From assembly GCA_034436315.1 (NCBI GenBank), contig DAOTVR010000130.1:1-43477 (forward strand): 43,477 nt of DNA. Direction: 5' to 3'. This stretch comes from Anaerolineae bacterium. Its GTDB lineage: Bacteria > Chloroflexota > Anaerolineae > UBA1429. The notes under the pieces were generated by a model. That model worked only from the letters and a program-made list of their open reading frames with translations, had not been told where the DNA came from and made no database searches. The translations under genes were made by a program, and so were the position numbers. Shown here in pieces: positions 2 to 30,403 of the stretch; within the stretch, counting starts at the first letter, position 1; each line of letters opens with the position of its first letter.

Positions 2-1231
2 ACCCCCTGGCAGCCCCTCGCCCCCGGCTCGCCCTACTACTTCTTCGTCCCGCGCCGGGCCGAAAACCCGCACTACCCATCCTGGCCGCAGATCAACCGC
101 ATCTTTCCCGTGAACAGCGTCGGCATCGTCACCGCGCGGGATGGGTTTACCATTGCTTTTGATAAAAGCGAATTACAAAACCGCATTCTGCAATTTCAGA
201 ACGTGCAGGGCTTGCCCGATGAGGTGCTGGCGCAGGCTTACGGACTGAAAGACAAGCCCGGCTGGTCGTTGGCCGCCGCTCGCAAAAAAGTCCAGGCTGA
301 CATGAATGCACAGAATAAAATCTACCCTATCCTCTACCGTCCCTTTGACGTGCGCTATATCTTCTACCATGAAGCCGTCATTGAACGCCCCCGCCCCGAG
401 GTCATGCGCCACATGCTGGCGGGGGAGAACCTGGCGCTCGTTATCACTCGCCAAGTAAAAGCGAGCGAAACTTGGCAACATTGCCTTGTCAGCAACTACA
501 TATTGGAATCGTCCTTAGTATCTAACCACACCAGCGAGATCGGTTACGCCTTTCCCCTCTACCTCTACCCTTCCGACGAGTCGCCGGACATGTTCCAGCG
601 GGCGCGCCGGCCCAACCTGGCCGAGTGGCTCACGCCCCAACTGGCCGCCGCCTACGGCTTCACGCCCACGCCGGAAGAGGTGCTGGCCTACATCTACGCC
701 GTCCTCTACAGCCCGAGCTACCGCGAAAAATACGCCCAGGAACTGCGCGTGGATTTCCCCCGCGTGCCCTTTACGGCGGATGGCGAGCTCTTCCGGCGGA
801 TGGCGGCGTTGGGCCAACAACTGATCGACCTGCACCTGCTGCGTCGCCCCGCCCTGCTCGCGGGGGGTGGCGCGCCGGCGGTCAAGTACCAGGGGCACGG
901 CGACGATACCGTGCAGGCCGTGCGCTACGACGCCCAGGCCCGGCGCGTGTGGATCAACGCGAACAAGTACTTTGAGGGCATCACTGCGGAGATGTGGGGC
1001 TATCCGATCGGCGGCTACCGGGTGTTGGAAAAATACCTGAAAGACCGCAAGGGCCGGCGGCTGGAAGACCCCGTGCGCTACATTCACATCGCCACGGCCA
1101 TCGCCCACACGATAGAGCTTCAGCGGCAGCTAGAAGCGCTCTACCCGCAGGTGGAGGACGAGGTTTTGCCCTTGGCCACCCAAACGGCGTCCGGGGCCGA
1201 CGCCCTCCTCGGCGGTGCGGCCGAGACATAG
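2..1231 (+). CDS. Type ISP / Type IIG restriction-modification enzyme, C-terminal region (5' end cut by window edge)
   Basis: Frame 2 is open from base 2 (TPWQPLAPGSPYYFFVP..IFPVNSVGIVTARD) into listed ORF 110..1231. The motifs YYFFVP, NSxGIxTARD, RPFDxRYIxY, NLALxxxRQ, YAFPLY, LYSPxYRxKY and DFPRVP match my memory of the C-terminal domain of LlaGI/LlaBIII-type enzymes. Confidence 0.75.
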   Translation, partial: TPWQPLAPGSPYYFFVPRRAENPHYPSWPQINRIFPVNSVGIVTARDGFTIAFDKSELQNRILQFQNVQGLPDEVLAQAYGLKDKPGWSLAAARKKVQADMNAQNKIYPILYRPFDVRYIFYHEAVIERPRPEVMRHMLAGENLALVITRQVKASETWQHCLVSNYILESSLVSNHTSEIGYAFPLYLYPSDESPDMFQRARRPNLAEWLTPQLAAAYGFTPTPEEVLAYIYAVLYSPSYREKYAQELRVDFPRVPFTADGELFRRMAALGQQLIDLHLLRRPALLAGGGAPAVKYQGHGDDTVQAVRYDAQARRVWINANKYFEGITAEMWGYPIGGYRVLEKYLKDRKGRRLEDPVRYIHIATAIAHTIELQRQLEALYPQVEDEVLPLATQTASGADALLGGAAET

Positions 1232-1276
1232 GCCGTTAGGTGCCATCAGGAGGATCCTTGAGGAGTGGAGGGAAAC

Positions 1277-1579
1277 ATGTTGAGCCGTGAAGAGATCATC
1301 GCTTTATTGCGACAGCATTACCCTTATCTTGCCGCCGAGTACGGCGTGAAGAGGGTGGGCCTGTTCGGCTCGTTCGCCGAGGGGCTTCCCGACGAGAGAA
1401 GCGACATTGACCTCATCGTTGAATTTGACCGCCCGATAGGATTCCGGTTTGTGGAATTGGCCGAATATCTTGAGCGCCTACTGGGGCGGGAAGTCGATCT
1501 ATTGACCCCCGCAAGCATCCGGGGGATTCGGATACCCTGGATTGCGGACGACATCGAGCGGAGTGTCATCTATGTCTAA
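1277..1579 (+). CDS. mntA: MNT-type nucleotidyltransferase (antitoxin of a HEPN/MNT pair)
   Basis: Has the GLFGSFAEG..DIDLIVEF (GS..DxD) minimal NTase motif. The ATG at 1277 follows GGAGGGAAAC. It overlaps the next gene by 8 nt (ATGTCTAA). Confidence 0.85.
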   Translation: MLSREEIIALLRQHYPYLAAEYGVKRVGLFGSFAEGLPDERSDIDLIVEFDRPIGFRFVELAEYLERLLGREVDLLTPASIRGIRIPWIADDIERSVIYV

Positions 1580-1925
1580 GCGCACCGACAGAGAATTCCT
1601 GAGCGATATCCTGGAGGCCATTCGTCGCATCAAGGCCTACACGGAGGGCATGACGTATGAGGCTTTCCTAGAAGATACCAAAACCCAGGACGCGGTCGTG
1701 CGCAATTTAGAGATCATCGGTGAGGCCGTGAAAAATCTCTCCGAAGAGTTACGGCAAGGGTACAGTGCTATTCCTTGGAAAAACATGGCCGGGGCACGGG
1801 ATCGCCTGATCCATCACTATTTTGGGATCAGTGTGGATATTGTGTGGGATATCGTTAGCGTTGAGCTGAACGCAGTGGCTTCTCAGATAGAACAAATCTT
1901 GGCTGCGAAGAGGGACGGCGCCTAA
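1572..1925 (+). CDS. hepT: HepT/DUF86 HEPN-domain toxin
   Basis: [20 protein letters not shown].. is a DUF86-like N-terminus. The RDRLIHHY stretch contains the Rx4H HEPN motif. It is translationally coupled to the upstream MNT gene. Confidence 0.85.
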
Positions 1926-2010
1926 CGGGCGCAGGCGAAGCGCGAGCTATCGGTCCGCTGAGGCTTCATAGGGTGCAACAAACATTTAAACCGCCACAGG
2001 GCATAACAAA

Positions 2011-2033
2011 GCGGCCGGCTTTTCGCCGGCCGC
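2011..2033 (-). terminator. Intrinsic terminator hairpin downstream of tRNA-Pro
   Basis: GCGGCCGGC-TTTTC-GCCGGCCGC is a perfect 9-bp stem. On the minus strand it is followed by TTTGTTAT. Confidence 0.6.
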
Positions 2034-2038
2034 CTGTG

Positions 2039-2112
2039 TCGGGGCGAGACGATTTGAACGTCCGACCACTTGAACCCCATTCAAGTGCGCTACCTGGCTG
2101 CGCTACGCCCCG
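2039..2112 (-). tRNA. tRNA-Pro (anticodon GGG), CCA not encoded
   Basis: The reverse complement CGGGGCGTAGCGCAGCCAGGTAGCGCACTTGAATGGGGTTCAAGTGGTCGGACGTTCAAATCGTCTCGCCCCGA folds by hand into a 74-nt cloverleaf. It has a 7-bp acceptor stem, a GCGC/GCGC D stem, a CTTGA/TCAAG anticodon stem with loop AT-GGG-GT, and a GGACG/CGTCT T stem with a TTCAAAT loop. Confidence 0.9.
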
Positions 2113-2123
2113 GGCACAGGGGA

Positions 2124-2152
2124 AGTATAGCATCCTTGAGCCCATTTAGCAA
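2124..2152 (-). promoter_or_regulatory. Sigma70-type promoter for tRNA-Pro
   Basis: The minus strand reads TTGCTA-17nt-TATACT. The -10 element ends about 11 nt before the tRNA 5' end. Confidence 0.6.
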
Positions 2153-2161
2153 ATCGCGGGG

Positions 2162-2193
2162 TGCGCTTGCGCCGAGAGATCGTTACCGGGCGG
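2162..2193. repeat. Left copy of a ~31-nt imperfect direct repeat bracketing the AbrB/PIN cassette
   Basis: TGCGCTTGCGCCGAGAGATCGTTACCGGGCGG here matches TGCGCTTGCGCCGAGATCGTCACCAGAGCGG at 3093-3123. Confidence 0.6.
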
Positions 2194-2278
2194 TGAGCAA
2201 ATAACTTAGATCGGACAAGCGTGGGCGAAGCGCCTTGGCGGGGGGATTTCGCTCAGGGCCGGGACGTTGTGGCCAAAC

Positions 2279-2728
2279 TTACGAGGGAGCTGTGGCGTGC
2301 CCTTCCTTGGAGCTCAGTGCCTCCAAAAGCTCATTGGGAAGGACGATCTTGAGGCCTGAGCGCTGGGCAATATGGGATTGACCCACAAAGTGGCGTCGGT
2401 CCAGGCTGACCAAGAAATCCACCTGGGCCCGTTTAGCCGCAGCGATGATCGGAGCATCCTTGGGCACGGTGTACTTCATCGCCTCCTTTACCTCCCGTTT
2501 GGTCGGGCGCACCATCTCGAAGCCTATCGCCTCGCACAGGCGGTCAAAGTAGGAGACGACCTCCGGCGCCTTCGCTTGGAGATTTCTCCTTGCTTCCTCC
2601 AACACCAGTTGGCTGGTCACCAAGCCTATTCCACCCCGGATGGCTTGGCGGATGATCTCCCGTGAGGCCCCCGTCTCCGAGTAGGCGGCAGCAAAGAGCA
2701 CGCTAGCATCAAGGAAGGCGCGAATCAT
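2279..2728 (-). CDS. vapC: PIN-domain ribonuclease toxin (VapC-like)
   Basis: MIRAFLDASVLFAAAY.. is a PIN N-terminus with the first acidic residue. The start at M25 of the listed ORF gives an ATGA overlap with the upstream antitoxin stop. Confidence 0.8.
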   Translation of the reverse strand: MIRAFLDASVLFAAAYSETGASREIIRQAIRGGIGLVTSQLVLEEARRNLQAKAPEVVSYFDRLCEAIGFEMVRPTKREVKEAMKYTVPKDAPIIAAAKRAQVDFLVSLDRRHFVGQSHIAQRSGLKIVLPNELLEALSSKEGHATAPS

Positions 2729-3012
2729 TCTTGGTCGGTCTTGATGCCGTATTCTTCTTCCAGGAGCTGGCCGCGGATCTCCCGACCCGCCTCGATCCAT
2801 TCCTCAAGGCTGATCCCTCGCTCCTTGAGGGCCTTGCCAAGGCGATCAAGGGCCTCCGTCGCCACCACTTCCCGAGGGCTTATAAGGACTCCATGCTCGG
2901 TCTCGATGAAGGCCACCAAGTCGCCTTTCTTCACCCCCAGCTTGCGGCGAATCGCCGCCGGAATGGTGACCTGGCCCTTCTCCTGAACCACAGACAGGTT
3001 TAAGGCTGGCAT
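2725..3012 (-). CDS. vapB: AbrB/SpoVT-family antitoxin (VapB-like)
   Basis: VQEKGQVTIPAAIRRKLGVKKGDLVAF is a SpoVT-AbrB swapped-hairpin motif. The ATG at 3012 is preceded by AGGAGAGAATCCG. The longer listed N-terminus falls in the predicted leader. Confidence 0.8.
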   Translation of the reverse strand: MPALNLSVVQEKGQVTIPAAIRRKLGVKKGDLVAFIETEHGVLISPREVVATEALDRLGKALKERGISLEEWIEAGREIRGQLLEEEYGIKTDQE

Positions 3013-3832: not shown

Positions 3833-4378
3833 ATGCGAGCCGTTGATGAAGGACAGCTCCTGGATAGAGCCAAAGACTATGATTGTGCGGCCCTGGGCGA
3901 GCTGTATGACCGTTATGCGGCCAAGATCTATAACTATATCTACTATCAGGTTGGGGACCCGGACCTGGCAGAAGACCTAACGGCCAGCGTCTTTACCAAG
4001 CTCTTGGACGCCATTCGCACGGACAAGGCCTGGCAGCTCTCGTTTTCGGCCTGGCTTTACCGTATCGCGCACAACCTCGTGGTGGATCATTTCCGCCGCG
4101 CCGAACACGAGAAGGCCCTGCCGCTCAACGAGCTCATCACCGCTGCCGTGGACGATCCGCTGTCGTCTGTGGAGCGCACCCTCTCATCGGATGCGGTCCG
4201 CAAGGCCATGCGCAACCTGACCGCGGAGCAACAGCTTGTGATCCTGCTCAAGTTCTCGGAGGAGCTGAGTAACCAGGAAGTGGCCCAGATCATGGGCAAG
4301 ACCGAGGGGGCGATCAAATCGCTACAATATCGGGCGCTCGCCGCGTTGCGTCGCTGTTTGGAAACAGATGGGTCTTAG
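3833..4378 (+). CDS. ECF-type RNA polymerase sigma factor
   Basis: Region 2 is recognisable (FSAWLYRIAHNLVVDHFRR), as is the region 4 HTH (LTAEQQLVILLKFSEELSNQEVAQIMGKTEGAIKSLQYRA). Confidence 0.9.
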   Translation: MRAVDEGQLLDRAKDYDCAALGELYDRYAAKIYNYIYYQVGDPDLAEDLTASVFTKLLDAIRTDKAWQLSFSAWLYRIAHNLVVDHFRRAEHEKALPLNELITAAVDDPLSSVERTLSSDAVRKAMRNLTAEQQLVILLKFSEELSNQEVAQIMGKTEGAIKSLQYRALAALRRCLETDGS

Positions 4379-4410
4379 CAAAGACCCGTCCGGGGATATG
4401 AGGGGGAAGG

Positions 4411-6066
4411 ATGACCAAAGGCATCGAGACCGTATTGGATGAATGTCTCGCCTGCCTCGCAGACGGGGAAAGCCTGGAGGCGTGCCTGGCACGCTATCCG
4501 CAGTTTCGGGGGGAGTTGGAGCCTCTGCTGCGGACGGCCCTCACGCTGCGCAAGGCCTACGCCCGGCCGGCTCCCTCCCAAGAGGCCCTGGCGCGCGTGC
4601 GCAGGGGCTTTTTGGCCGAGGCGGAGCGCCGCCAACGCGCCCTGGCCGAACGCAAACGGCGCGGCTGGCTCCGTTGGCAGCCCCAATTCAGCCTCTCGCG
4701 CGGGCTGGCCACGGCCCTTTTGACCCTGGTGTTGCTTTTCGGCCTCTTGGGGGGCGGGAGCATCGTCTCGGCCAACAGCCTCCCCGGCGACCCCCTCTAC
4801 GGGGTGAAGCGCGCCTCGGAGAAAATGCTCCTCCTCTTGACCTTCGACGCCCAGCAGCGCGCCGCCTTGGAGCGCCAATTTGAGAGCCGCCGCGTGGAAG
4901 AGGTCAAGAAGGTCGTGGAGCAGGGCCGACAGGTGGAGGTGGATTTCGCCGGCGTGGTGGAGAAGGTGGAGGGGGAGATCGTCTTCGTCCAGGGGATCCC
5001 CCTGCGCTGGGTCTCCGACCAACCCCCGGCCATAGGGACCGAGGTCCACGTCCGCGCCAAGACACAAGGGGAAGGCCCCCTGGAGGTCAAGGCCCTCGCC
5101 GTGCGCGAGCCGGCCCCCGCCGCGGCCCCGGTGGCCTCATCGCCCACCTTCACCGCCACGGCGACGGTCTCGTCTGAGCGCCGGCCGAGCGATACGCCGG
5201 CCGCCAAGCCCACCGACAAGCCGACTCCCACGTACACCATCCCGCCGACCGAGACGGCCCGGCCCACGGAGACGGCCACGGCGGAGGTCACCGCCACCGA
5301 GATGCCCAGCCTGACGGCCACCCCCACGCGGACGCCGACCCGCCCGCCCACGGCGACGCCCGTGCCGCCGCCCGAGGGGGTCAAGGTGCGCATTGAGGGG
5401 CGCATCGACGAGATCACCGACGCCTATTGGACGGTCAACGGCGAGCGCGTGCTCCTGCAGCGGGCCACCCGCTTCAACCTGACGCGCGCCCCGGCCCAGG
5501 TGGGCGGTTGGGCGGTGGTCGACGCCCTCAAGACCGGCGACGGCCGCCTCTTGGCGGAGGAGATCGTGGTCATGCGCGGCGCCGAGCAGCCGCCGGTATC
5601 CCGGGAGTTCAGCGGGATCATCGAGGCCATCGCCGAGGGGCGCTGGACGATCGGCGGGCGCGAGGTGCGCATCGTCGGCGATACGGTGATCGAAGGCACC
5701 CCGGCGGTGGGCGCGCTGGCCCACGTGCGCGCCGACCAATACGCCGACGGGCGCTTGGTGGCCCGACGGATCGTCGTCGAGAGCGAGCAGGTGGTGCAAT
5801 TTACGGGGATCATCAGCTCCATCGCCGCGGATCGGTGGGTGATCGGCGGTCAGGAGGTCTGGATAGATACCAACACGCGGATTGAAGGGCAGCCCACGGT
5901 GGGGGCCATGGCCGAGGTGGAGGCGCTACAGCGCGCCGACGGCACCTTGCACGCCCGACGGATCCGGGTGGAGCCGCCCGCCTCGCCGGAGGCGGCAGCC
6001 CCCACGGCCGAGCCGCCGGAGACGGCCGTCCCCACGGCCATCCCCACGGAAGGGGCCTCATCGTGA
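4411..6066 (+). CDS. Anti-sigma factor-like membrane protein with four extracytoplasmic DUF5666-type repeats
   Basis: It lies immediately downstream of the ECF sigma gene. It has a Cys-containing N-terminal helix domain, one TM segment (LATALLTLVLLFGLLGGG) and a PT-rich linker. About four units of the type FSGIIEAIAEGRWTIGGREVRIVGDTVIEG..ADGRLVARRIVV follow. Confidence 0.75.
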   Translation: MTKGIETVLDECLACLADGESLEACLARYPQFRGELEPLLRTALTLRKAYARPAPSQEALARVRRGFLAEAERRQRALAERKRRGWLRWQPQFSLSRGLATALLTLVLLFGLLGGGSIVSANSLPGDPLYGVKRASEKMLLLLTFDAQQRAALERQFESRRVEEVKKVVEQGRQVEVDFAGVVEKVEGEIVFVQGIPLRWVSDQPPAIGTEVHVRAKTQGEGPLEVKALAVREPAPAAAPVASSPTFTATATVSSERRPSDTPAAKPTDKPTPTYTIPPTETARPTETATAEVTATEMPSLTATPTRTPTRPPTATPVPPPEGVKVRIEGRIDEITDAYWTVNGERVLLQRATRFNLTRAPAQVGGWAVVDALKTGDGRLLAEEIVVMRGAEQPPVSREFSGIIEAIAEGRWTIGGREVRIVGDTVIEGTPAVGALAHVRADQYADGRLVARRIVVESEQVVQFTGIISSIAADRWVIGGQEVWIDTNTRIEGQPTVGAMAEVEALQRADGTLHARRIRVEPPASPEAAAPTAEPPETAVPTAIPTEGASS

Positions 6067-6088
6067 GCCGCATAAAGGGGGCGAGGTC

Positions 6089-7060
6089 ATGAGGAGAGCG
6101 TTCGTCAGCATCCTGGGGGTGATCGTCAGCCTGTTGGTCACTCTAATGGTCGGCGCGCCGGCGCTGGCCGCGTCGGGCCGGGGCCCGGTGCTCATCTGGA
6201 CGCCGACCCGGCCCATCGCCGTGCGCTTTGAGGGCATCCTCACTCAGGTCTCCGCGATCCCCGGCGAGTGGCGCGTGGAGGGGATCAGCTTCCTCGTCAA
6301 CGCCGAGACCGAGATCTCCCCGGAGGGCTATACCCCCCAAGTGGGCGATTACGCCATCGTCAGCGCCATCCGCGAGGGCGAGACGCTCACCGCCACGCGC
6401 ATCCTCATCCGCGAAAAGAGGCTCTTTGAGTTTCGGGGAGTCATCACCGTCCTCCCGCCGGAGCCTTACGACGGGGAGTGGCTCATCGGCGGGGTGCGCG
6501 TGTGGGTCAATTCGCGGGCCACGCTGATCACCAACCGGCCCGCGCTCAGCTACTATGCCGACGTCAAGGGACGGCTGCGCCCCGACCTCCAGGTGGAGGC
6601 GACCGAGATCGTGGTCCTGAACCCCCAGGATGTCGCCAACGGCTTTGAGTTCCAAGGCCCCATCGAGCAGATCGCCTCTACCCCCACGCAAGAGGGCCCC
6701 TGGGTGATCGCCGGGGTGCAGGGGCTGGTCAGCGCCGATACGCGCATTGAGGGCGCGCCGGCAATCGGGGCGACGGCCGGCGTCACCGGCAAGCGCCTGG
6801 CCGACGGCACCCTGTTCTTTGAGCGCATCCGCGTGCTCACCGAGGCCGAGAACCAGGTGCGCGTGAGCGGCCTCATTGAGGAGATCCAGGAGGATTATTG
6901 GCTCATCGGCGGGCAGATGGTGGAGCTTGAGGAGACGACCTTCATAGACGAAAGCCGTTGTCGCGCCGCCGTGGGCATGTGGGCGGAGGCCATCGCCTAT
7001 CGCTGCTATGGCAGCGCGCTCTGCGCCCTGCGCATTCGGGTGGAAAGGCCCGAGGAATAG
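6089..7060 (+). CDS. Secreted protein with four DUF5666-type repeats
   Basis: The ATG at 6089 follows AAAGGGGGCGAGG and gives the signal peptide MRRAFVSILGVIVSLLVTLMVGAPALAASG. Four units of the type F(E/Q)GxIxxI..W.I.G..V.V...T.I are present. The listed upstream extension overlaps the previous gene and is Arg/Pro junk. Confidence 0.75.
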   Translation: MRRAFVSILGVIVSLLVTLMVGAPALAASGRGPVLIWTPTRPIAVRFEGILTQVSAIPGEWRVEGISFLVNAETEISPEGYTPQVGDYAIVSAIREGETLTATRILIREKRLFEFRGVITVLPPEPYDGEWLIGGVRVWVNSRATLITNRPALSYYADVKGRLRPDLQVEATEIVVLNPQDVANGFEFQGPIEQIASTPTQEGPWVIAGVQGLVSADTRIEGAPAIGATAGVTGKRLADGTLFFERIRVLTEAENQVRVSGLIEEIQEDYWLIGGQMVELEETTFIDESRCRAAVGMWAEAIAYRCYGSALCALRIRVERPEE

Positions 7061-7074
7061 GGCCTAAGATACAA

Positions 7075-7150
7075 GGCTGAAGTCCTCAGCCTTCAGCGAT
7101 CAGCCATCAGCCCTCGGCTGAGGGGCTGACGGCTGAAAGCTGATAGCCGA
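7075..7150. repeat. Heptamer-armed hairpin element (family 2)
   Basis: Left arm is CCTCAGC CTTCAGC GATCAGC CATCAGC CCTCGGC. Right arm is GGGGCTG ACGGCTG AAAGCTG ATAGCCG. It lies directly after the stop at 7060. Confidence 0.7.
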
Positions 7151-11998: not shown

Positions 11999-12014
11999 GT
12001 TCACAAAAGTGAAC
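11999..12014. promoter_or_regulatory. Perfect 6-4-6 palindrome just upstream of the -35 of the 12081 gene
   Basis: GTTCAC-AAAA-GTGAAC. This is a candidate operator. Confidence 0.4.
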
Positions 12015-12023
12015 GATTGCCCC

Positions 12024-12052
12024 TTGATTTTCGCCCTCATCTTTGCTATGAT
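12024..12052 (+). promoter_or_regulatory. Near-consensus sigma70 promoter of the phage-like module
   Basis: TTGATT-17nt-TATGAT. Confidence 0.6.
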
Positions 12053-12056
12053 GGGT

Positions 12057-12072
12057 TAGAACAAATGTTCTA
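12057..12072 (+). promoter_or_regulatory. LexA-type (Cheo-box-like) operator between the -10 and the RBS
   Basis: TAGAAC-AAAT-GTTCTA is a perfect palindrome with a GAAC-N4-GTTC core. It lies 4 nt after the -10 and abuts the AGGAG RBS of the ATG at 12081. Confidence 0.55.
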
Positions 12073-12080
12073 AGGAGATC

Positions 12081-12515
12081 ATGCCCAAGAACCCCCGCAA
12101 GCGCCGCTGCGAGGTGCAGGGCTGCCGGGCCTGGGCCAAGCGCGGCGAGAGCTTGTGCGCCGCACACCTGCATTCGCGCCTGGTACAGGAGCGCCCCGAG
12201 CTGCTCCTGCCCTTGTTGCGCGCCGTGGCCCAGGGGATGGAGGAGCGCCCCCTGGACGACCTGCGGCTCATCGATCAGGAGCTGCGCAACCTCTTTTTGG
12301 CGCGGGCCTTTTTCATCGCCTGGGTGGAGAAGCTGCGCGCCGAGCCGCCCGAGAGGCCCGGCCTGGGGCCGGGGCAGTTCCTGCGCGCCTGGAACGAGTC
12401 CACCGCCCGCCTGGTGCAGCTCTTGCGCGCCCGCCGCGAGCTGGGCGGCGACCAAGAGGGGGAATTCGGCGAGCTGATCCGCAGCGTGTACGAAACGCTG
12501 GAAGGGGATCAGTAA
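12081..12515 (+). CDS. Hypothetical small protein with an N-terminal Cys/His cluster
   Basis: AGGAGATC-ATG start. The sequence MPKNPRKRRCEVQGCRAWAKRGESLCAAHLH has a C-x4-C-x12-C-x2-H pattern, and the rest is helical. I recognise no family. Confidence 0.55.
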   Translation: MPKNPRKRRCEVQGCRAWAKRGESLCAAHLHSRLVQERPELLLPLLRAVAQGMEERPLDDLRLIDQELRNLFLARAFFIAWVEKLRAEPPERPGLGPGQFLRAWNESTARLVQLLRARRELGGDQEGEFGELIRSVYETLEGDQ

Positions 12516-12683
12516 TCAGCTTTCAGCGGTCAGCTTTCGGCTGTCAGCAACCAGCTTTCGGCCGTCGGCGGTCAGTTCTTACCCTGGGGGATGATCGCTG
12601 ACCGAAAAAGCCGATAGCTGCCGGCTGACCGCTGATAGCTGATAACCGAAGGCTGACCGCTGAGGCCTGACTACTGATAACTG
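12516..12683. repeat. Heptamer-armed hairpin element (family 2) between convergent genes
   Basis: Left arm is ATCAGCT TTCAGCG GTCAGCT TTCGGCT GTCAGCA ACCAGCT TTCGGCC GTCGGCG GTCAG. After the loop, the right arm reads GCTGACC..GCTGATA GCTGATA..GCTGACC GCTGAGG. Its last units encode ..GSYQ* of the minus-strand ORF. Confidence 0.75.
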
Positions 12684-13492
12684 CCTGGCGGCAACAGCGG
12701 GGCCATGTGGCTCCAGAGGTTAAAGTAGCGCCCACCGGAGACGCGGCCCACGTCGTCGCGGTAGGCTTGGAGGAAGACGAGGGAGACGCGGCGATGCTCG
12801 GCCGCCCAGCGTTCCAGGGAGCGGAGGAGGAGCCGTGCGGGGCCCTCCACATCCCAATGGCGACAAAAGACGCCCATGTAGGCCCGTTCGGCGTCCGCCT
12901 CGGAGCGCACCAAGGCGAGGAAATCGGCCTCCAGCTCGGCCAGGACCTCGGCGGGGATGGGTTTCAGGCCCTCCCCTAAGTCTACCAAGGCCAAGTTGAC
13001 GGCTGCCAGGAGCGGCCTGGGGCACGCCCCCGGAGGGAGGGCGCGCAGCTCGGCGGCGCAGCGGGGATCGGCATTGGCCACGGTCTTCAGCTCATAGGCG
13101 CGCACAAAGCCGGGGTCGAGCAGGACTATATCGTAAGGATGAAGGGTGAAGGATGAAGGATGGACCGTGGCCCTCATCTCCCTTGGTCCCCCTTCTCCCA
13201 AGTTTGGGAGAAGGGGGGAAGGGGGTTGAGGGTCCTTCGTCCTTCCGCCTTCATCCTTCCCCATGAGGCCCAGCTCGTAAGCCAGGAGAGGAGGGTAATC
13301 GCGGTGTAGCAGGCTCGTCCAGCGGCCATCGCGGGTGGCATAGCGCGCCCTCAAGAGCGGCTCGCGCTCCAAGGCGGCGAAGGCCGCCGCGTGCAGGTCG
13401 GCCTCGCGCAGGAAGAGGTCGGGCGCATCCTGAAACTGCCGGATGAGCTCGGCCAAAGCGCGCTCTAAGGCAACGCAATGTGCAACGCTCAC
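12671..13492 (-). CDS. Hypothetical protein, possible PD-(D/E)XK-fold nuclease, with an in-frame palindromic insert
   Basis: It is the longest ORF in the region and starts with GTG. YDIVLLD..AYELKT fits an hD..(D/E)xK signature. Residues GKDEGG..FTLHP are encoded by the 13135-13262 palindrome. Confidence 0.45.
   Translation of the reverse strand: MSVAHCVALERALAELIRQFQDAPDLFLREADLHAAAFAALEREPLLRARYATRDGRWTSLLHRDYPPLLAYELGLMGKDEGGRTKDPQPPSPLLPNLGEGGPREMRATVHPSSFTLHPYDIVLLDPGFVRAYELKTVANADPRCAAELRALPPGACPRPLLAAVNLALVDLGEGLKPIPAEVLAELEADFLALVRSEADAERAYMGVFCRHWDVEGPARLLLRSLERWAAEHRRVSLVFLQAYRDDVGRVSGGRYFNLWSHMAPLLPPGSYQ
13135..13262. repeat. Family-3 palindromic element with AAGGRTG/CCTTCNN heptamer arms, inside a CDS
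   Basis: Left arm is AAGGATG AAGGGTG AAGGATG AAGGATG. The central perfect palindrome is CCCTTCTCCC-AAGTTT-GGGAGAAGGG. Right arm is CCTTCGT CCTTCCG CCTTCAT CCTTCC. Confidence 0.7.
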
Positions 13493-13508
13493 GAGTTAGT
13501 TCTCAGGA

Positions 13509-13668
13509 GTCAGCTTTCAGCGGTCAGCCATCAGCTATTGGCAGTTAGCGGTCAGCTATCGGTGATCAACCCTTCCGACTTGAAACTAACGGCTAACAGC
13601 TGACGACTGATAGCTGACAGCTGATGGCTGAAAGCTGATAGCTGACGGCTAATGGCTGATGGCCGATC
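13509..13668. repeat. Heptamer-armed hairpin element (family 2), largest copy
   Basis: Left arm from 13511 is CAGCTTT CAGCGGT CAGCCAT CAGCTAT.. Right arm from 13596 is ACAGCTG ACGACTG ATAGCTG ACAGCTG ATGGCTG AAAGCTG ATAGCTG ACGGCTA ATGGCTG ATGGCCG. Confidence 0.8.
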
Positions 13669-13680
13669 ACGGACAACCAG

Positions 13681-13709
13681 ATTGTAAGTTGGTCGCTGGG
13701 GCTTGTCAA
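13681..13709 (-). promoter_or_regulatory. Consensus sigma70 promoter between two hairpin elements, facing the 12671..13492 ORF
   Basis: The minus strand reads TTGACA-17nt-TACAAT. Confidence 0.55.
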
Positions 13710-13718
13710 CTGCGATGG

Positions 13719-13812
13719 CTGTCAGTGTTCAGCAGTCAGTCGTCAGCGGTCAGCCAGCTCTTGGCCGTCGGCCATTCCGGCTGAGGGCTGAAAGCTGGCT
13801 GCTGATAGCTAC
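13719..13812. repeat. Heptamer-armed hairpin element (family 2)
   Basis: The left arm is GTCAGTG TTCAGCA GTCAGTC GTCAGCG GTCAGCC AGC. After the loop, the right arm is GGCTGAGG GCTGAAA GCTGGCT GCTGATA GCT. It is read through by the listed ORF 13703.. but is probably non-coding. Confidence 0.7.
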
Positions 13813-13825
13813 TTCGGAGGTTTCC

Positions 13826-15337
13826 TTGGAGATTCCCGATCGCGATCGAGCCCGGCTGCGGGCCAGGCTGGTGCGCGCCCTATCGGATATCGGCGCCTTC
13901 AGCCGCGAGGTGCTGCGGCGGCCGCTGCGCGGTTACCAGCTAGAGGTGGCGCGGGCCATCGTCGCCTCGGTCCTGGGGGGCCGGGGGCTGACCTTCGCGG
14001 TGATGATGGCCCGCCAGGCAGGCAAAAACGAGACCTCGGCCCAGGTGGAGGCCTTTTTGCTCAACTACTTTCGCCGCCGGGGCGGGTACCTCGTCAAGGC
14101 CGCGCCCACCTTCAAGCCGCAGGCAGCCAACAGCCTCCTACGGCTGAGGGCGGTGTTGGAGGGCAGCCTCCTCCCCCCGCCGAAGCACGAGGGGGGCTAT
14201 ATCCTGCGCGTGGGCCGGGCGCGGGCGCTTTTCCTCTCGGCCGGCCCCCAGGCCAACGTCGTGGGGGCCACGGCGAACATCCTCCTGGAGGCCGACGAGG
14301 CCCAGGATATAGACGAGGCCAAGTGGGAGAAGGACTTTCGCCCCATGGGGGCCTCCACCAACGTCACCACTGTCCTGTGGGGCACGGCCTGGACCTCGGC
14401 GACGCTCCTGGCGCGGGCCATCCGCGCCCTGCGCCAGGCCGAGGAGCGCGACGGCCTGCGGCGCGTCTTTATCGTCCCCTGGGAGGTCGTGGCCCAGGAG
14501 GTGCCGCCCTATGGGGAGTATATCCGAGGGGAGCTGGAGCGCCTGGGGCCGAACCACCCCTTCATCAAGACCCAGTACGACCTGGAGGAGATAGATGACC
14601 AGGGCGGGATGTTCCCCCCGGCCACGCGCGCGCTCATGGTCGGCACGCACCCGCGCCAACGCGCCCCCACCGAGGGGCGGGAATACGCCCTGCTGGTGGA
14701 CGTGGCCGGCGCATCCGAGGAGCACGCCGGCGGGGGCGTTCAAGCTCTTACCAACTTGGGCGTTCCATCGAACGCCCCTACTGAGCCGCGGCGGGATTCC
14801 ACGGCCCTGACCATCGTGGAGATCGTCCGCAACGAGCTGGGGTTGCCCCGCTTCCTGGTCGTGGATCGCTACGAGTGGACGGGCACGCCCCATCACCAAC
14901 TTTACGGGGCCATCGTGCACCTGGCCGAGCTGTGGGCCCCGACGCGGATCGTCGTGGATGCCACCGGCGTGGGCGCGGGGCTGGCCTCCTTCTTGCGCCA
15001 CGCCCTGGGGGAGCGCGTGCTACCCTTCACCTTCACCCTGGCGAGCAAGAGCGAGCTGGGCTGGGGCTTTTTGGGCATCTGCAACTCGGGGCGCTTCCTG
15101 GATCACCGCGACGACGGCTCGCCGGAGCGCGAGCGCTTCTGGCGCCAGGTGGCCGCCGCCGATTACGAGGTGCTGGCCGGGCCGGATCAGCGCATGCGCT
15201 GGGGCGTGCGCGACGCGGCGGTGCACGACGACCTGCTCATCTCCGCCGCCCTCTGCGCCCTATTGGATCACCGGGCGCCGGCCCCGTATAGCGGCTCGCA
15301 GATCATCGAGGCCGGCGATCCGTTGGCAAGTAGTTAG
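13826..15337 (+). CDS. Phage terminase large subunit-like protein (ATPase plus RNaseH-like nuclease)
   Basis: Has a Walker A-like motif (MMARQAGKNETS), a Walker B motif (ILLEADEAQDI) and a C-terminal VVDATGVGAGLASFL nuclease-type motif. The start is proposed at TTG 13826, after GGAGGTTTCC. The listed start at 13703 lies in repeat DNA. Confidence 0.7.
   Translation: MEIPDRDRARLRARLVRALSDIGAFSREVLRRPLRGYQLEVARAIVASVLGGRGLTFAVMMARQAGKNETSAQVEAFLLNYFRRRGGYLVKAAPTFKPQAANSLLRLRAVLEGSLLPPPKHEGGYILRVGRARALFLSAGPQANVVGATANILLEADEAQDIDEAKWEKDFRPMGASTNVTTVLWGTAWTSATLLARAIRALRQAEERDGLRRVFIVPWEVVAQEVPPYGEYIRGELERLGPNHPFIKTQYDLEEIDDQGGMFPPATRALMVGTHPRQRAPTEGREYALLVDVAGASEEHAGGGVQALTNLGVPSNAPTEPRRDSTALTIVEIVRNELGLPRFLVVDRYEWTGTPHHQLYGAIVHLAELWAPTRIVVDATGVGAGLASFLRHALGERVLPFTFTLASKSELGWGFLGICNSGRFLDHRDDGSPERERFWRQVAAADYEVLAGPDQRMRWGVRDAAVHDDLLISAALCALLDHRAPAPYSGSQIIEAGDPLASS
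14732..14781. repeat. Family-1 palindromic element copy, in frame inside the terminase gene
   Basis: GGGGGCGTTCAAGCTCTTACCAACTTGGGCGTTCCATCGAACGCCCCTAC encodes GGVQALTNLGVPSNAPT. Confidence 0.65.
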
Positions 15338-15425: not shown

Positions 15426-16040
15426 ACGATGTTGACGGAAGAGGAGCTGATCGCCCTGTGGCAGGTGGCCCGGCGGGAGGTGTTGCGCCGTTGCGGGCAC
15501 ACCCTGGCCCGCCTGCGCGCCGGCGAGGGGGGCTTTTACGAGGCCGAGGATTTCTGGCAGGACCTCTTCTTGGCCTTCTGGAGGCTGCTCCGGAAATGGC
15601 AGGCCACCACGCCGGGGGATGAGCGCGCCCTCTGGGCCGCCTGGCGCAAGTTCCTCCACCGGGGAGGGGCGCAGATCCTGCGTCGCGCGCCGATGCGCCT
15701 CTGGGCGCGGCGCGAGCAGCCGCTGGCTCCCCAGCTCCTCGCCCTGGAGGACGACGCAGACGAGGCGGAACGGCCCCTGGACCCCATGGCCCAGGAGGCG
15801 CTCATCCAGGCGGAGGACGCCGAGGCAGAGTACCTGCGTCGGGCCTGCCTGGACGACCTGGAGGCGGCCCTTTGGGCGCTTCGCCCGGGGCAGCGGCAGG
15901 TGATCTTCATGGCCACCCTCGCCGAGTTGCCCGCCGCGGAGGTGGCCCGCCTCCTGGGGCTGAGCGACGGCAACGCCATCGCCCAGCGCCTGTACGTCGC
16001 CCGCGCGGCCTTGCGAAGGCTGTTTCGTGGTGACCAGTAG
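15402..16040 (+). CDS. Divergent sigma-70/ECF-like protein (region 4 HTH); a terminase small subunit-like role is also possible
   Basis: LRPGQRQVIFMATLAELPAAEVARLLGLSDGNAIAQRLYVARAALRRL is a sigma region-4-type HTH. The ATG at 15402 lies in the hairpin arm, and the ATG at 15429 is an alternative start. The TAG stop lies inside a family-1 repeat. Confidence 0.55.
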   Translation: MADNRKLRTMLTEEELIALWQVARREVLRRCGHTLARLRAGEGGFYEAEDFWQDLFLAFWRLLRKWQATTPGDERALWAAWRKFLHRGGAQILRRAPMRLWARREQPLAPQLLALEDDADEAERPLDPMAQEALIQAEDAEAEYLRRACLDDLEAALWALRPGQRQVIFMATLAELPAAEVARLLGLSDGNAIAQRLYVARAALRRLFRGDQ

Positions 16041-16094
16041 GGGCGTTCCATTGAACGCCCCTACCGCCTCGGGCGTTCAATGGAACGCCCCTAC
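16037..16094. repeat. Family-1 palindromic elements (two tandem copies)
   Basis: GTAGGGGCGTTCCATTGAACGCCCCTAC is followed by CGCCTCGGGCGTTCAATGGAACGCCCCTAC. Confidence 0.8.
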
Positions 16095-16231
16095 ACACAC
16101 ATTTGAGGGCGCGATGAACCTGGTTGAGCTGCGCGTGCTGGCCCTTTACGAGCGCCTCCGGCGGGAGAACCGCCTCCTATTGGGGTTGATGCGCGCCGGG
16201 TTGACGCTCGCCGAGGCGGAGGTCTGGCTGG

Positions 16232-16807
16232 CTAAGAGGGCCCAGGGAGAGGGCGAAAGGATGAACCGGCCTTCACCTTCTCGGCGGCCTGGAAGCCGGC
16301 ATCCAAAGCCTTGAGGTTGAGCTCCACCGTGCCCCGAGGGGCGCGCTCGGCGATGGCCTTCTCCAGGGCCTCGCGCGAGACGATCCCCGAGAGCCCGGCC
16401 AAAAGCCCCAAGCCCACCACGTTGGCGGTGATGCTGCGCCCGGTGGCCTCCTCGGCGATCTTGGTGATGGGCACCCTGATGGCCTTGCTCGTGGGCACGC
16501 GCTGGACGTGCACCGAGTCCACGATCAACAGGCCGTCCTTCTTGAGGTCATGATAATACTTATCGCAGGCCTCCTGGCTCATGGCCAGGAGCACGTCGGC
16601 GGCGATCACCTTGGGATAGTCTATCTCCTCGGTAGAGATCACCACCTCCGATTTACTGGCCCCGCCGCGGGCCTCCGGGCCATAGGATTGCGTCTGGCAG
16701 GCGTTCTTGCCGTCGTACATCACCGCCGCCTCGGCCAGGATCAGCCCGGCCAGGATCAACCCCTGGCCCCCTTCGCCGGCCAGCCGGATCTCGTACCGTT
16801 CTGCCAT
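16232..16807 (-). CDS. 2-oxoacid:ferredoxin oxidoreductase, gamma subunit
   Basis: MAERYEIRLAGEGGQGLILAGLILAEAA..QSYGPEARGGASKSEV is a typical gamma-subunit sequence. The start follows AAGGAGGAGC. Confidence 0.88.
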   Translation of the reverse strand: MAERYEIRLAGEGGQGLILAGLILAEAAVMYDGKNACQTQSYGPEARGGASKSEVVISTEEIDYPKVIAADVLLAMSQEACDKYYHDLKKDGLLIVDSVHVQRVPTSKAIRVPITKIAEEATGRSITANVVGLGLLAGLSGIVSREALEKAIAERAPRGTVELNLKALDAGFQAAEKVKAGSSFRPLPGPS

Positions 16808-19689: not shown

Positions 19690-19752
19690 GTTATCAGTGA
19701 TCAGCAATCTGTAGTCAGACTGACCACTGATTGCTGAGAACTGATTACTGAC
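19690..19752. repeat. Heptamer-armed hairpin element (family 2 variant, almost no loop)
   Basis: GTTATCAG TGATCAG CAATCTG TAGTCAG pairs with ACTGACC ACTGATT GCTGAGA ACTGATT ACTGAC. The centre is GTCAG-A-CTGAC. Confidence 0.7.
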
Positions 19753-19773
19753 ACCTGAGAGGGGAGATACGCC

Positions 19774-22011: not shown

Positions 22012-22234
22012 GGGGCGTTCAATTGAACGCCCCTGCTGGACGCCCTATCCATCCCCTTATGTAGGGACGTTCAATTGAACGTCCCTACATAAGCGTTCAA
22101 TTGAACGTCCCTACCCAAGCGTCCAACTGACCGCCCCTGTATCCATCCCCTTACGTAGGGGCGTTCAATTGAACGCCCCTACCAAAACGTTCAATTGAAC
22201 GTCCCTACACAAACATTCAAACGAACGCCCCTAC
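22012..22234. repeat. Array of about 7 family-1 palindromic units
   Basis: Full units GTAGGG(A/G)CGTTCAATTGAACG(T/C)CCCTAC lie at 22061-22088 and 22155-22182. 26-nt partial units of the form nnAAGCGTTCAATTGAACGTCCCTAC, some degenerate, lie between them. Confidence 0.85.
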
Positions 22235-22249
22235 ATGTCTGCCCTATCC

Positions 22250-28617: not shown

Positions 28618-28618
28618 A

Positions 28619-28713
28619 GCCGTCAGTTATCAGCCGTCAGCCATCAGCTAGACTCCCCGCAAGCTGACGACTGATGGCTGAGGGCCGTTTACTAAAAGCC
28701 GACAACTGATAAC
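28619..28713. repeat. Heptamer-armed hairpin element (family 2)
   Basis: The left arm is GCCGTCAG TTATCAGC CGTCAGC CATCAGC. After the loop, the right arm is AGCTGAC GACTGAT GGCTGAG ..CAACTGATAAC. It starts 2 nt after the NUDIX stop. Confidence 0.7.
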
Positions 28714-29686: not shown

Positions 29687-30376
29687 ATGCGCATCTTGGC
29701 CGTTGATGACGACCGCAATAACCTGAAGATGCTCGCCTTCCTCCTCGGCGAGGAGGGCTATGAGGTCATAACCGCCGACAACGGACGCACCGCCCTGGAG
29801 CTACTGGATTCCAAGAACCCGGACCTGGTCATCCTGGACGTGATGATGCCCCATATGGACGGCCTGGAGGTCTGCCGGCGCATCCGCCAGACGATGGACA
29901 TCCCCATCATCATCCTCTCGGCCAAGGGGGAGACGGCGGACAAGGTCTTGGGGTTGGAGCTGGGCGCGGACGACTATTTGCCCAAGCCCTTTGACCCCTC
30001 CGAGCTGTTGGCCCGCGTGCGGGCGGTGCTGCGGCGCAGCGAGCTATCCGCCTTTGACGATTCCAAGGTCGCCGTGGCCGTCGGCGGGTTGCGCCTTGAC
30101 CCGGTCACCCATCAGGTCATCCTGAGCAATGGGAAGGCGGTGGATCTCACGCCGATTGAGTTCCGCCTGTTGCACTGCCTGATGCGCAACGCCGGCAGGA
30201 CGCTCACCCACGACTTTCTCATGAGCCACGCCTGGGGTTACGAGTACGAGGGCTATAGCAACCAGATCGCCGTTTACATCCGCCGGCTGCGCAACAAAAT
30301 AGAGCCGGACCCGGAGAACCCCACGTATATCACTACAGTGCGCGGGTTTGGATACCGTTTTGAGAGGGAACCGTAG
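29687..30376 (+). CDS. OmpR/PhoB-family response regulator
   Basis: The receiver domain reads MRILAVDDD..DLVILDVMMPHMDG..SAKG. The winged-helix domain reads LTPIEFRLLHCLM..TVRGFGYRF. The ATG at 29687 follows GAGGGAGAAGGA. Confidence 0.9.
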   Translation: MRILAVDDDRNNLKMLAFLLGEEGYEVITADNGRTALELLDSKNPDLVILDVMMPHMDGLEVCRRIRQTMDIPIIILSAKGETADKVLGLELGADDYLPKPFDPSELLARVRAVLRRSELSAFDDSKVAVAVGGLRLDPVTHQVILSNGKAVDLTPIEFRLLHCLMRNAGRTLTHDFLMSHAWGYEYEGYSNQIAVYIRRLRNKIEPDPENPTYITTVRGFGYRFEREP

Positions 30377-30403
30377 TTCAGCAATCACCCGAGGTCAGCA
30401 CAC

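Follow-up and report, generated by a model that had tools for sequence, protein, structure and literature searches.

A predicted LexA operator and a second conserved palindrome at the promoter of a phage-derived terminase and sigma factor cassette in Chloroflexota

What does a promoter set between two palindromes, one of them resembling a LexA operator, control on an Anaerolineae-like chromosome, and is it a DNA-damage switch? The question is raised by positions 11999–12083 of the 43,477-nucleotide stretch analysed here (the window), where an earlier note, made from the letters, had read such an arrangement in front of an orphan phage-like module. From sequence comparison we consider it likely that this region is controlled by LexA and inducible by DNA damage, and that it governs a conserved cassette, phage-derived and made up of four or five genes. 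The window has a G+C content of 66% and carries ordinary chromosomal genes, including those for a methionine aminopeptidase, a ketopantoate-reductase-like protein, a 2-oxoacid:ferredoxin oxidoreductase, two-component systems and toxin-antitoxin pairs. The order of elements previously claimed for 11999–12080 matches the DNA letter for letter, and the control region can be laid out as follows.

11999–12014, no strand: upstream palindrome GTTCAC-AAAA-GTGAAC, putative site of a cassette-specific factor, with the conserved core TTCAC-N4-GTGAA at 12000–12013
12024–12052, plus strand: predicted promoter P_A, with a -35 element TTGATT (12024–12029), a 17-nt spacer and an extended -10 element TG-c-TATGAT (12044–12052)
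12057–12072, no strand: predicted LexA operator of the Cheo-box type, TAGAAC-AAAT-GTTCTA, at about -3 to +13 of P_A
12073–12077, plus strand: ribosome-binding site of gene A, AGGAG, read from the sequence

The upstream palindrome is separated from the -35 element by 9 nt, the TG of the extended -10 lies at 12044–12045 and TATGAT at 12047–12052. The LexA-type box starts 4 nt past TATGAT and ends directly before the ribosome-binding site, with the ATG of gene A following at 12081, so that the box with its GAAC-N4-GTTC core indeed sits between the -10 element and the ribosome-binding site, as had been proposed. The description of P_A as a consensus promoter was too generous: the promoter scan gives it 9 of 12 matches with the TG present, which makes it a good promoter with an extended -10 but not a consensus one. 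The same scan found four promoter-like sites in the 4.6-kb region, where 0.4 would be expected, and comparable -35 and TG-n-TATnnT elements are seen in most of the cassette promoters compared. The box has an A/T-rich spacer between its half-sites and overlaps the promoter at its predicted start site, which is the arrangement looked for in a Cheo-box operator.

Within the window alone, the two palindromes are just mildly unlikely to occur by chance, and it is conservation that decides. GAAC-N4-GTTC is found twice (0.43 expected), the full 16-mer box with up to two mismatches once (0.22 expected) and TTCAC-N4-GTGAA once (0.02 expected). The earlier statement that no other GAAC-N4-GTTC was seen in the intergenic regions examined needs an amendment, as there is a second copy at 30368–30379, which runs across the stop codon of a gene for a response regulator. 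We rejected this copy as a LexA site because it overlaps the stop codon and because its flanks (GGGAAC...GTTCAG) misfit the extended consensus. Conservation, in turn, is extensive. The box precedes the orthologue of gene A in 18 Chloroflexota genomes, mostly Anaerolineae and taken as one genome per species, and about seven further metagenome cassette contigs have it in a like position; since the same layout recurs before an orthologous gene throughout this set, it is not a product of chance. The consensus of the 18 cassette sites is aATAGAAC-ATAT-GTTCTATt (also given as ATAGAACATATGTTCTAT), with an invariant GAAC/GTTC core, and in all cassettes compared 6–10 nt separate the -10 element from GAAC. 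This layout is kept while the A proteins are only about 40–60% identical.

The identity of the factor that reads the box is best approached through lexA itself. The check suggested by the earlier note, whether lexA promoters share the motif, was run on relatives of the same class (eight lexA genes from seven Anaerolineae genomes), and it came out positive in every case, with a TAGAAC-N4-GTTC box at all eight genes. The query for this search was an artificial sequence composed to resemble LexA of Chloroflexi, while the proteins that it retrieved carry Pfam LexA_DNA_bind and Peptidase_S24 and so are genuine LexA; the organism-named entries all read 'transcriptional repressor LexA [Anaerolineae bacterium]' or '[Chloroflexota bacterium]'. 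A search with an alignment of the LexA proteins of B. subtilis, M. tuberculosis, T. maritima and E. coli returned almost entirely Bacillus, with a few entries from E. coli, Salmonella and Thermotoga. In six of the eight lexA genes the box fills the spacer between the TTGACA and TATAAT elements of the lexA promoter, giving TTGACA-TAGAAC-N4-GTTCrT-G-TATAAT in loci L042, L046, L049 (both paralogues), L052 and L058/L061 (both paralogues), or TTGACA-T(A/C)GAAC-N4-GTTC(G/T/A)(T/G)G-TATAAT in a looser form. A lexA paralogue has a second box just past its -10 element, which is the position of the box in the cassette. In loci L050 and L170 it is the promoter of fpg, the gene directly before lexA in an fpg-lexA pair, that holds the box, and another one precedes an FtsK-like gene 3' of lexA. 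The exact GAAC-N4-GTTC occurs at no other place in the fetched lexA loci.

None of these eight lexA genes is linked to a cassette, and neither lexA nor recA was found in the 490 kb of sequence that make up the cassette loci. A connection is suggested by shared samples: the assemblies that yielded lexA loci L052 and L053 (ERZ27296006 and ERZ27296003) also yielded cassette loci L015 and L013, lexA locus L061 shares JGI sample 3300005098 with cassette locus L011, and the G+C content agrees between the lexA and cassette contigs of these samples. This is suggestive of a link between those lexA genes and cassette-bearing organisms, namely the hosts of these other cassette contigs and not that of the window. 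Several Anaerolineae genomes carry a second lexA paralogue. Outside the class, the LexA of Dehalococcoides has reportedly been shown to bind GAAC-N4-GTTC (Fernandez de Henestrosa et al., J Bacteriol 2002). Because the same motif is present in the promoters of all eight Anaerolineae lexA genes, the TAGAAC-N4-GTTCTA box very probably serves this lineage as its LexA operator, and the LexA-type reading of the downstream palindrome is thereby supported. The consensus of the cassette boxes also matches the published Gram-positive LexA consensus (TACGAACATATGTTCGTA / CGAACRNRYGTTYC; PMC2248561).

The upstream palindrome had been described as a 6-4-6 element that could bind a second regulator. The element is real and does imply a second factor, but what is conserved is the shorter core TTCAC-N4-GTGAA, with variable GTTC/GAAC ends. 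In the window it lies about 52 bp upstream of the predicted start site of P_A. This core is present with no or one mismatch in 12 of the 16 cassette promoters, whether gene B is present or absent, while the outer G...C positions vary and one clade has TTTCAC...GTGAAA. Across 1.57 Mb of fetched DNA, consisting of the cassette loci, the lexA loci and 828 kb of viral contigs, the exact core is found only 62–75 nt upstream of cassette LexA boxes, and for this reason the site appears to be separate from the LexA regulon and specific to the cassette. We considered whether it might be a LexA site with inverted half-sites and rejected this, as the GTTC/GAAC ends vary and the site is never found at lexA promoters; a likeness to Rex or CRP sites was also discarded, since the order of the half-sites is everted. 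The centre-to-centre distance between the upstream palindrome and the LexA box is 58–59, 68–71 or 81 bp. These steps are near whole helical turns and hint at a face-of-helix constraint, with the spacing classes tracking clades and so representing only about three independent events. The leading candidate for the protein that binds here is, we infer, the zinc finger of gene A.

The genes that follow had been regarded as uncharacterised. They can now be named in part, gene C as a large terminase and gene D as an ECF-type sigma factor, while A and B stay without a family match.

12081–12515, plus strand: gene A, 144 aa, zinc-finger-like protein in the small-terminase position
12671–13492, minus strand: gene B, 273 aa, antisense to the operon
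13681–13709, minus strand: predicted promoter P_B, TTGACA-17-TACAAT, reading leftward into B, 11 of 12 matches in the promoter scan
13826–15337, plus strand: gene C, 503 aa, predicted large terminase with an ATPase and an RNase H-like nuclease
15429–16040, plus strand: gene D, 203 aa, ECF-type sigma factor of the sigma-70 family (matches in TIGR02937, Pfam, PHROG and PDB)
16114–16314, plus strand: gene E, 66 aa, small and helical, carrying the motif ENRxLLxLLRxGHSL

Judged by motifs and by its modelled fold, gene C is a complete large terminase (TerL). Its Walker A (RQAGK) and Walker B (LLEADEAQ) motifs and its nuclease aspartates are invariant across 36 homologues, the invariant residues being R63, Q64, G66, K67, E158, D292, D378, D468 and D469. 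The model (pLDDT 90.5) matches the terminases of T4 (gp17), HK97, D6E and Sf6 in Foldseek with E-values of 1.8e-14 to 1e-10, at least the top 30 matches are all large terminases, and weak terminase matches are also found in Pfam and PHROG. Gene D scores 44.3 bits against TIGR02937 (cut-off 42.9) over residues 9–197. It matches Pfam Sigma70_r4_2 (region 4), phrog_1740 and ECF sigma factors in the PDB (E 3e-5), with region 2 weakly recognisable.

Gene A has an N-terminal Cys-Cys-Cys-His motif with invariant C10, C15, C26 and H29, followed by a helical region. It has no match in Pfam, PHROG, NCBIfam, PADLOC (at E up to 0.1) or PDB, and fold searches with its low-confidence model (pLDDT 67.7) returned nothing significant. 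In cassettes without B the stop codon of A overlaps the start codon of C (ATGA), which is the usual arrangement of small and large terminase genes, and A-like genes are found directly upstream of the terminase gene in about ten or more viral contigs. By its position in the cassettes without B, as read from gene order, A is what a small terminase would be: small, coupled to the large-terminase gene and directly upstream of it. The exact gene A protein is also encoded on metagenome contigs from hot springs, microbial mats and sediments. Gene B, present in about half of the cassettes and likewise without a match in Pfam, PHROG, NCBIfam, PADLOC (at E up to 0.1) or PDB, has in the window an in-frame repeat insertion of about 40 codons. 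Most of the B-containing cassettes compared conserve the P_B element, as GTTGAC-N16-18-TACAAT, in the B–C spacer. Gene E follows D in 9 of about 15 cassettes. No PADLOC match was obtained for C and D either at E up to 0.1, so that none of A to D matches a known anti-phage defence system in PADLOC.

Homologues of gene A and its neighbours are found in Chloroflexota assemblies, mostly labelled Anaerolineae. The A-(B)-C-D set is present in 18 of the 23 loci from the one-genome-per-species scan, all of them Chloroflexota, and on metagenome contigs the cassette is surrounded by five different sets of flanking genes. Gene D directly follows C wherever the contig has upstream sequence and is never found apart from it. 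Neither in the window nor in the 8–10 kb flanks of the cassette in five contexts did we find portal, capsid, tail, integrase or replication genes, and prophage- or PICI-like hallmarks (integrase, attachment sites, replication or structural genes) are absent around the cassette in the window and in loci L008, L011, L013 and L017. The term orphan phage-like module was thus well chosen, as a complete large terminase stands here while portal and capsid genes are missing from the flanks in all five contexts. The terminase family of gene C is large, with 1866 clusters at 50% identity, and the closest relative of C on a viral contig is 59% identical, compared with 62–73% among the first five cassettes compared. 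Genes B and D are absent from the viral contigs searched. In the distant chromosomal loci L033, L037 and L038 the terminase gene runs into portal or protease-capsid genes, and these loci too have a Cheo-like box upstream. Given that A-like genes precede viral terminases and that these three loci continue into structural genes, the cassette resembles the leading part of a packaging operon from a Chloroflexota phage, in which a sigma factor has apparently taken the place of the structural genes. Some copies are decaying: C is frameshifted in L008 and L040, and A in L020. The A-C-D gene set with LexA-type control appears not to have been described previously.

Could the box be bound by a repressor other than LexA, be it the product of cassette gene A, B or E or a phage repressor that is LexA-like and happens to have the motif in common? 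Each cassette does have its own copy of the box and encodes a zinc-finger protein along with two proteins that have no assigned role, and the second lexA paralogue of several Anaerolineae genomes could have targets of its own. We nevertheless regard this as improbable: the same box stands at all eight lexA promoters that are unlinked to a cassette, as well as before fpg and the FtsK-like gene, its GAAC/GTTC core stays invariant while the cassette proteins diverge to 40–50% identity, and the motif equals the known LexA consensus. An explanation in terms of RNA, with the palindromes acting as 5'-UTR hairpins on translation or stability, is less plausible by far. The box does lie between the -10 element and the ribosome-binding site and both palindromes could fold into short hairpins, but the predicted transcription start falls inside the box, so that the full hairpin would not be transcribed, and the upstream palindrome is 5' of the -35 element and outside the P_A transcript altogether. 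Moreover, the half-sites are often asymmetric (GTTCGA, GTTCGG, GTTCGC) with compensating changes absent, and in lexA promoters the same box is located between the -35 and -10 elements.

A rival of another kind holds that the cassette is a decaying prophage remnant and its operator a functionless fossil of a phage late or packaging promoter. The related loci in which the same terminase family runs into portal or capsid genes and carries the box would fit such an origin, as would the frameshifts in some copies and the repeat insertion in the window's B. Random decay would hardly explain, though, why A, C and D recur with their promoter in 18 species-level genomes and more metagenome contigs in varied contexts, why C is still 62–73% identical among the first five cassettes with catalytic residues invariant in 36 homologues, or why D is tied to C wherever it is found and is not seen in viral contigs. 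The recurrence, the invariant catalytic residues and the tie of D to C argue for retention by selection, and we give the fossil explanation as little credence as that of a different repressor.

How would such a region work? In the undamaged cell a LexA dimer on the box would block initiation at P_A. DNA damage would lead to RecA-stimulated self-cleavage of LexA and so free P_A, from which gene A, the terminase C, the sigma factor D and the small protein E would then be made. In cassettes without B, the gene arrangement indicates that A-C-D is one translationally coupled operon. Where B is present, the P_A transcript would run against B, which would have its own strong constitutive promoter, and convergent transcription, by collision or antisense pairing, would be expected to lower B and raise C and D. 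In locus L011, A and B share 32 nt at their 3' ends, which leaves no room for a terminator, so that P_A transcripts there must enter B in the antisense direction. Gene A is followed in the window by a long, imperfect hairpin made up of heptamer repeats (12508–12680), and further hairpins (13496–13800) precede gene C; because of these, read-through from P_A into C-D is uncertain in this copy, more so than in the others. A sigma-70-like or ECF-type promoter for C was not found in the B–C spacer, where the sole conserved element is the complement of P_B.

Downstream of the switch, D might steer RNA polymerase towards targets beyond the cassette, and the A and C proteins might act together as a terminase that packages DNA into phage-type particles encoded elsewhere, in a PBSX- or gene-transfer-agent-like manner. 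Packaging into particles encoded elsewhere is our best guess for the output. A terminase needs a portal-bearing capsid, and this is why we prefer a dispersed PBSX-like or gene-transfer-agent-like system. A more specific proposal, which we put forward tentatively and consider rather doubtful as it stands, is that of a domesticated, SOS-triggered 'ignition and packaging' module: the particle system would be split, with D firing distant head and tail genes and the terminase pair filling the particles, while B together with TTCAC-N4-GTGAA would act as a second safety lock. On an equal footing with it is a variant in which the cassette may be a terminase decoy, turned on at phage-induced damage, that cuts or mis-packages the DNA of an infecting relative.

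These findings matter in two ways. By comparison of loci they give evidence of the LexA operator in the class Anaerolineae, which is large and for the most part uncultured, with TAGAAC-N4-GTTC placed in the spacer between the -35 and -10 elements of lexA, and this motif can seed a prediction of the full SOS regulon. They also point to a compact set, in which a small-terminase-like gene is joined by genes for a large terminase and an ECF sigma factor and, in some copies, by two small genes of no assigned role. This set is kept in many species, apparently under direct LexA control, without adjoining capsid genes. It would represent either a dispersed gene-transfer-agent-like system or a terminase in another role, such as defence or DNA processing, and would be new biology for the phylum if true.

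Among known systems, gene transfer agents that rely on a sigma-like activator (GafA in Rhodobacter and GafYZ in Caulobacter; PMC6363796, PMC11150451) are comparable in that domesticated phage genes are placed under a dedicated sigma-like activator, possibly encoded away from the structural cluster. They differ in that the known activators are not found beside terminase genes, and the 8–10 kb flanks of the cassette show no structural cluster. To our knowledge, none of the known gene transfer agent activators is under direct LexA control. PBSX, the defective prophage of Bacillus subtilis, has the sigma-like factor xpf followed by the terminase genes xtmA and xtmB. Like the cassette, it is phage-derived with an ECF-like sigma factor beside small and large terminase genes, and it is damage-inducible, as is predicted here. 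In contrast to the cassette, PBSX forms one complete and unbroken cluster, in which portal, head, tail and lysis genes are accompanied by a repressor of its own, Xre, whereas here there are only terminase genes and a sigma factor, in the order terminase to sigma, with LexA predicted to act directly on the promoter. Direct repression by host LexA is known for some phages and prophages, such as Bacillus thuringiensis GIL01 and CTXphi. The likeness lies in a host LexA box on a phage promoter, sometimes accompanied by a second phage-specific site or co-factor; GIL01 and CTXphi are, however, complete replicating phages, while the cassette is without replication, integration, structural or lysis genes nearby. 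The predicted operator itself resembles the Cheo-box LexA operators of Firmicutes, Actinobacteria and Dehalococcoides in its palindrome, its preferred spacer (ATAT, AAAT), its overlap with the core promoter and the presence of the motif on the lexA gene itself. We know of no earlier documentation of such an operator in the class Anaerolineae. The extended consensus here is TAGAAC-N4-GTTCTA, compared with CGAAC-N4-GTTCG in the known ones, and the predicted target is a terminase and sigma factor cassette instead of a repair gene. As a switch, judged by the motif, it is unremarkable among LexA operators of the Cheo-box family.

Cheo-type boxes (GAAC-N4-GTTC, predicted LexA operators) are found upstream of the terminase gene in several phage-like relatives of the cassette, some of which have portal or capsid genes, and also in viral contigs:

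L033, 137: box upstream of the terminase gene, phage-like relative
L037, 8612: the same
L038, 2962: the same, imperfect
L040, 9015: the same, imperfect
L035, 1662: the same, imperfect
L071, 1815: box upstream of the terminase gene, viral contig
L138, 3088: box upstream of the terminase gene, viral contig
L068, 310: box in a viral contig, ~2.9 kb upstream of the small gene that precedes the terminase gene

In this phage group, repression of the packaging operon directly by LexA may be the ancestral state. Decay is under way in some copies of the cassette or its relatives: L008 (10473-10644) and L040 (10001-11470) carry frameshifts in the terminase gene, and L020 (8496-8896) carries one in gene A.

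In locus L019 (14136-14343), the element TATAAT-GCGAACATCTGTTCAC lies immediately upstream of a 52-aa ORF whose product has a lipoprotein-type signal peptide. This product may be a small membrane protein under SOS control, a type of protein that frequently acts as a cell-division inhibitor.

Regions around lexA in several Anaerolineae genomes:

L049, 4930-5500: lexA-linked cluster region
L058, 6779-7387: lexA-linked cluster region
L050, 4998-6938: lexA-linked cluster region
L052, 5267-6673: lexA-linked cluster region
L170, 5999-8140: lexA-linked cluster region

In several of these genomes a second lexA paralogue, with two predicted LexA boxes of its own, sits directly 3' of lexA, and in several an FtsK/SpoIIIE-like ATPase gene, itself preceded by a box, comes after lexA. 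Small genes come next in L050 and L170, one of them with a weak DUF6504 match. Together, these genes look like a conserved SOS-linked cluster.

Two further elements of the window contain the same half-sites:

30368-30379: second GAAC-N4-GTTC, GGGAACCGTAGTTCAG, overlapping the stop codon that ends a response-regulator gene
16041-16092 and 22046-22235: 22-nt hairpins rich in G+C that form a REP-like family, with the sequence GGGGCGTTC-CATT-GAACGCCCC followed by TAC

The former lies 25 nt upstream of the gene for a 1346-aa Ig-domain surface protein, and we considered it as a LexA site; its flanks mismatch the LexA consensus, and therefore it was rejected and is probably a chance occurrence. The REP-like hairpins, present as two inverted copies between genes D and E (16041-16092) and as a tandem array at 22046-22235, contain GTTC-N4-GAAC, that is, the half-sites of the LexA box in reverse order.

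At the start of the window (110-2800), the C-terminal part of a Type ISP restriction enzyme is encoded together with two toxins, a HepT-like ribonuclease and a PIN-domain protein. They make up a small defence and toxin-antitoxin cluster, which has no relation to the LexA-box cassette. Another ECF sigma factor gene, of ordinary type and only distantly similar to gene D, occupies 3833-4378 and is followed by genes for two DUF5666/DUF5667 proteins (region 3833-7060).

Repeats of other kinds lie between genes and inside gene B:

12508-12680, 13496-13670, 13717-13800, 7086-7112, 19719-19758 and 28618-28648: intergenic heptamer repeat arrays (TCAGCnn / GCTGAnn)
13135-13258, minus strand: (GAAGGAT)n hairpin, in-frame insertion in gene B

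The insertion, a hairpin with 26-nt arms that are 88% complementary, gives gene B ~40 extra residues that are absent from every orthologue, with the reading frame still open. The intergenic arrays, two of which flank gene B, form long imperfect hairpins (arms of ~60-78 nt, complementarity 72-78%) and look like the short tandem heptamer repeats known in cyanobacteria.
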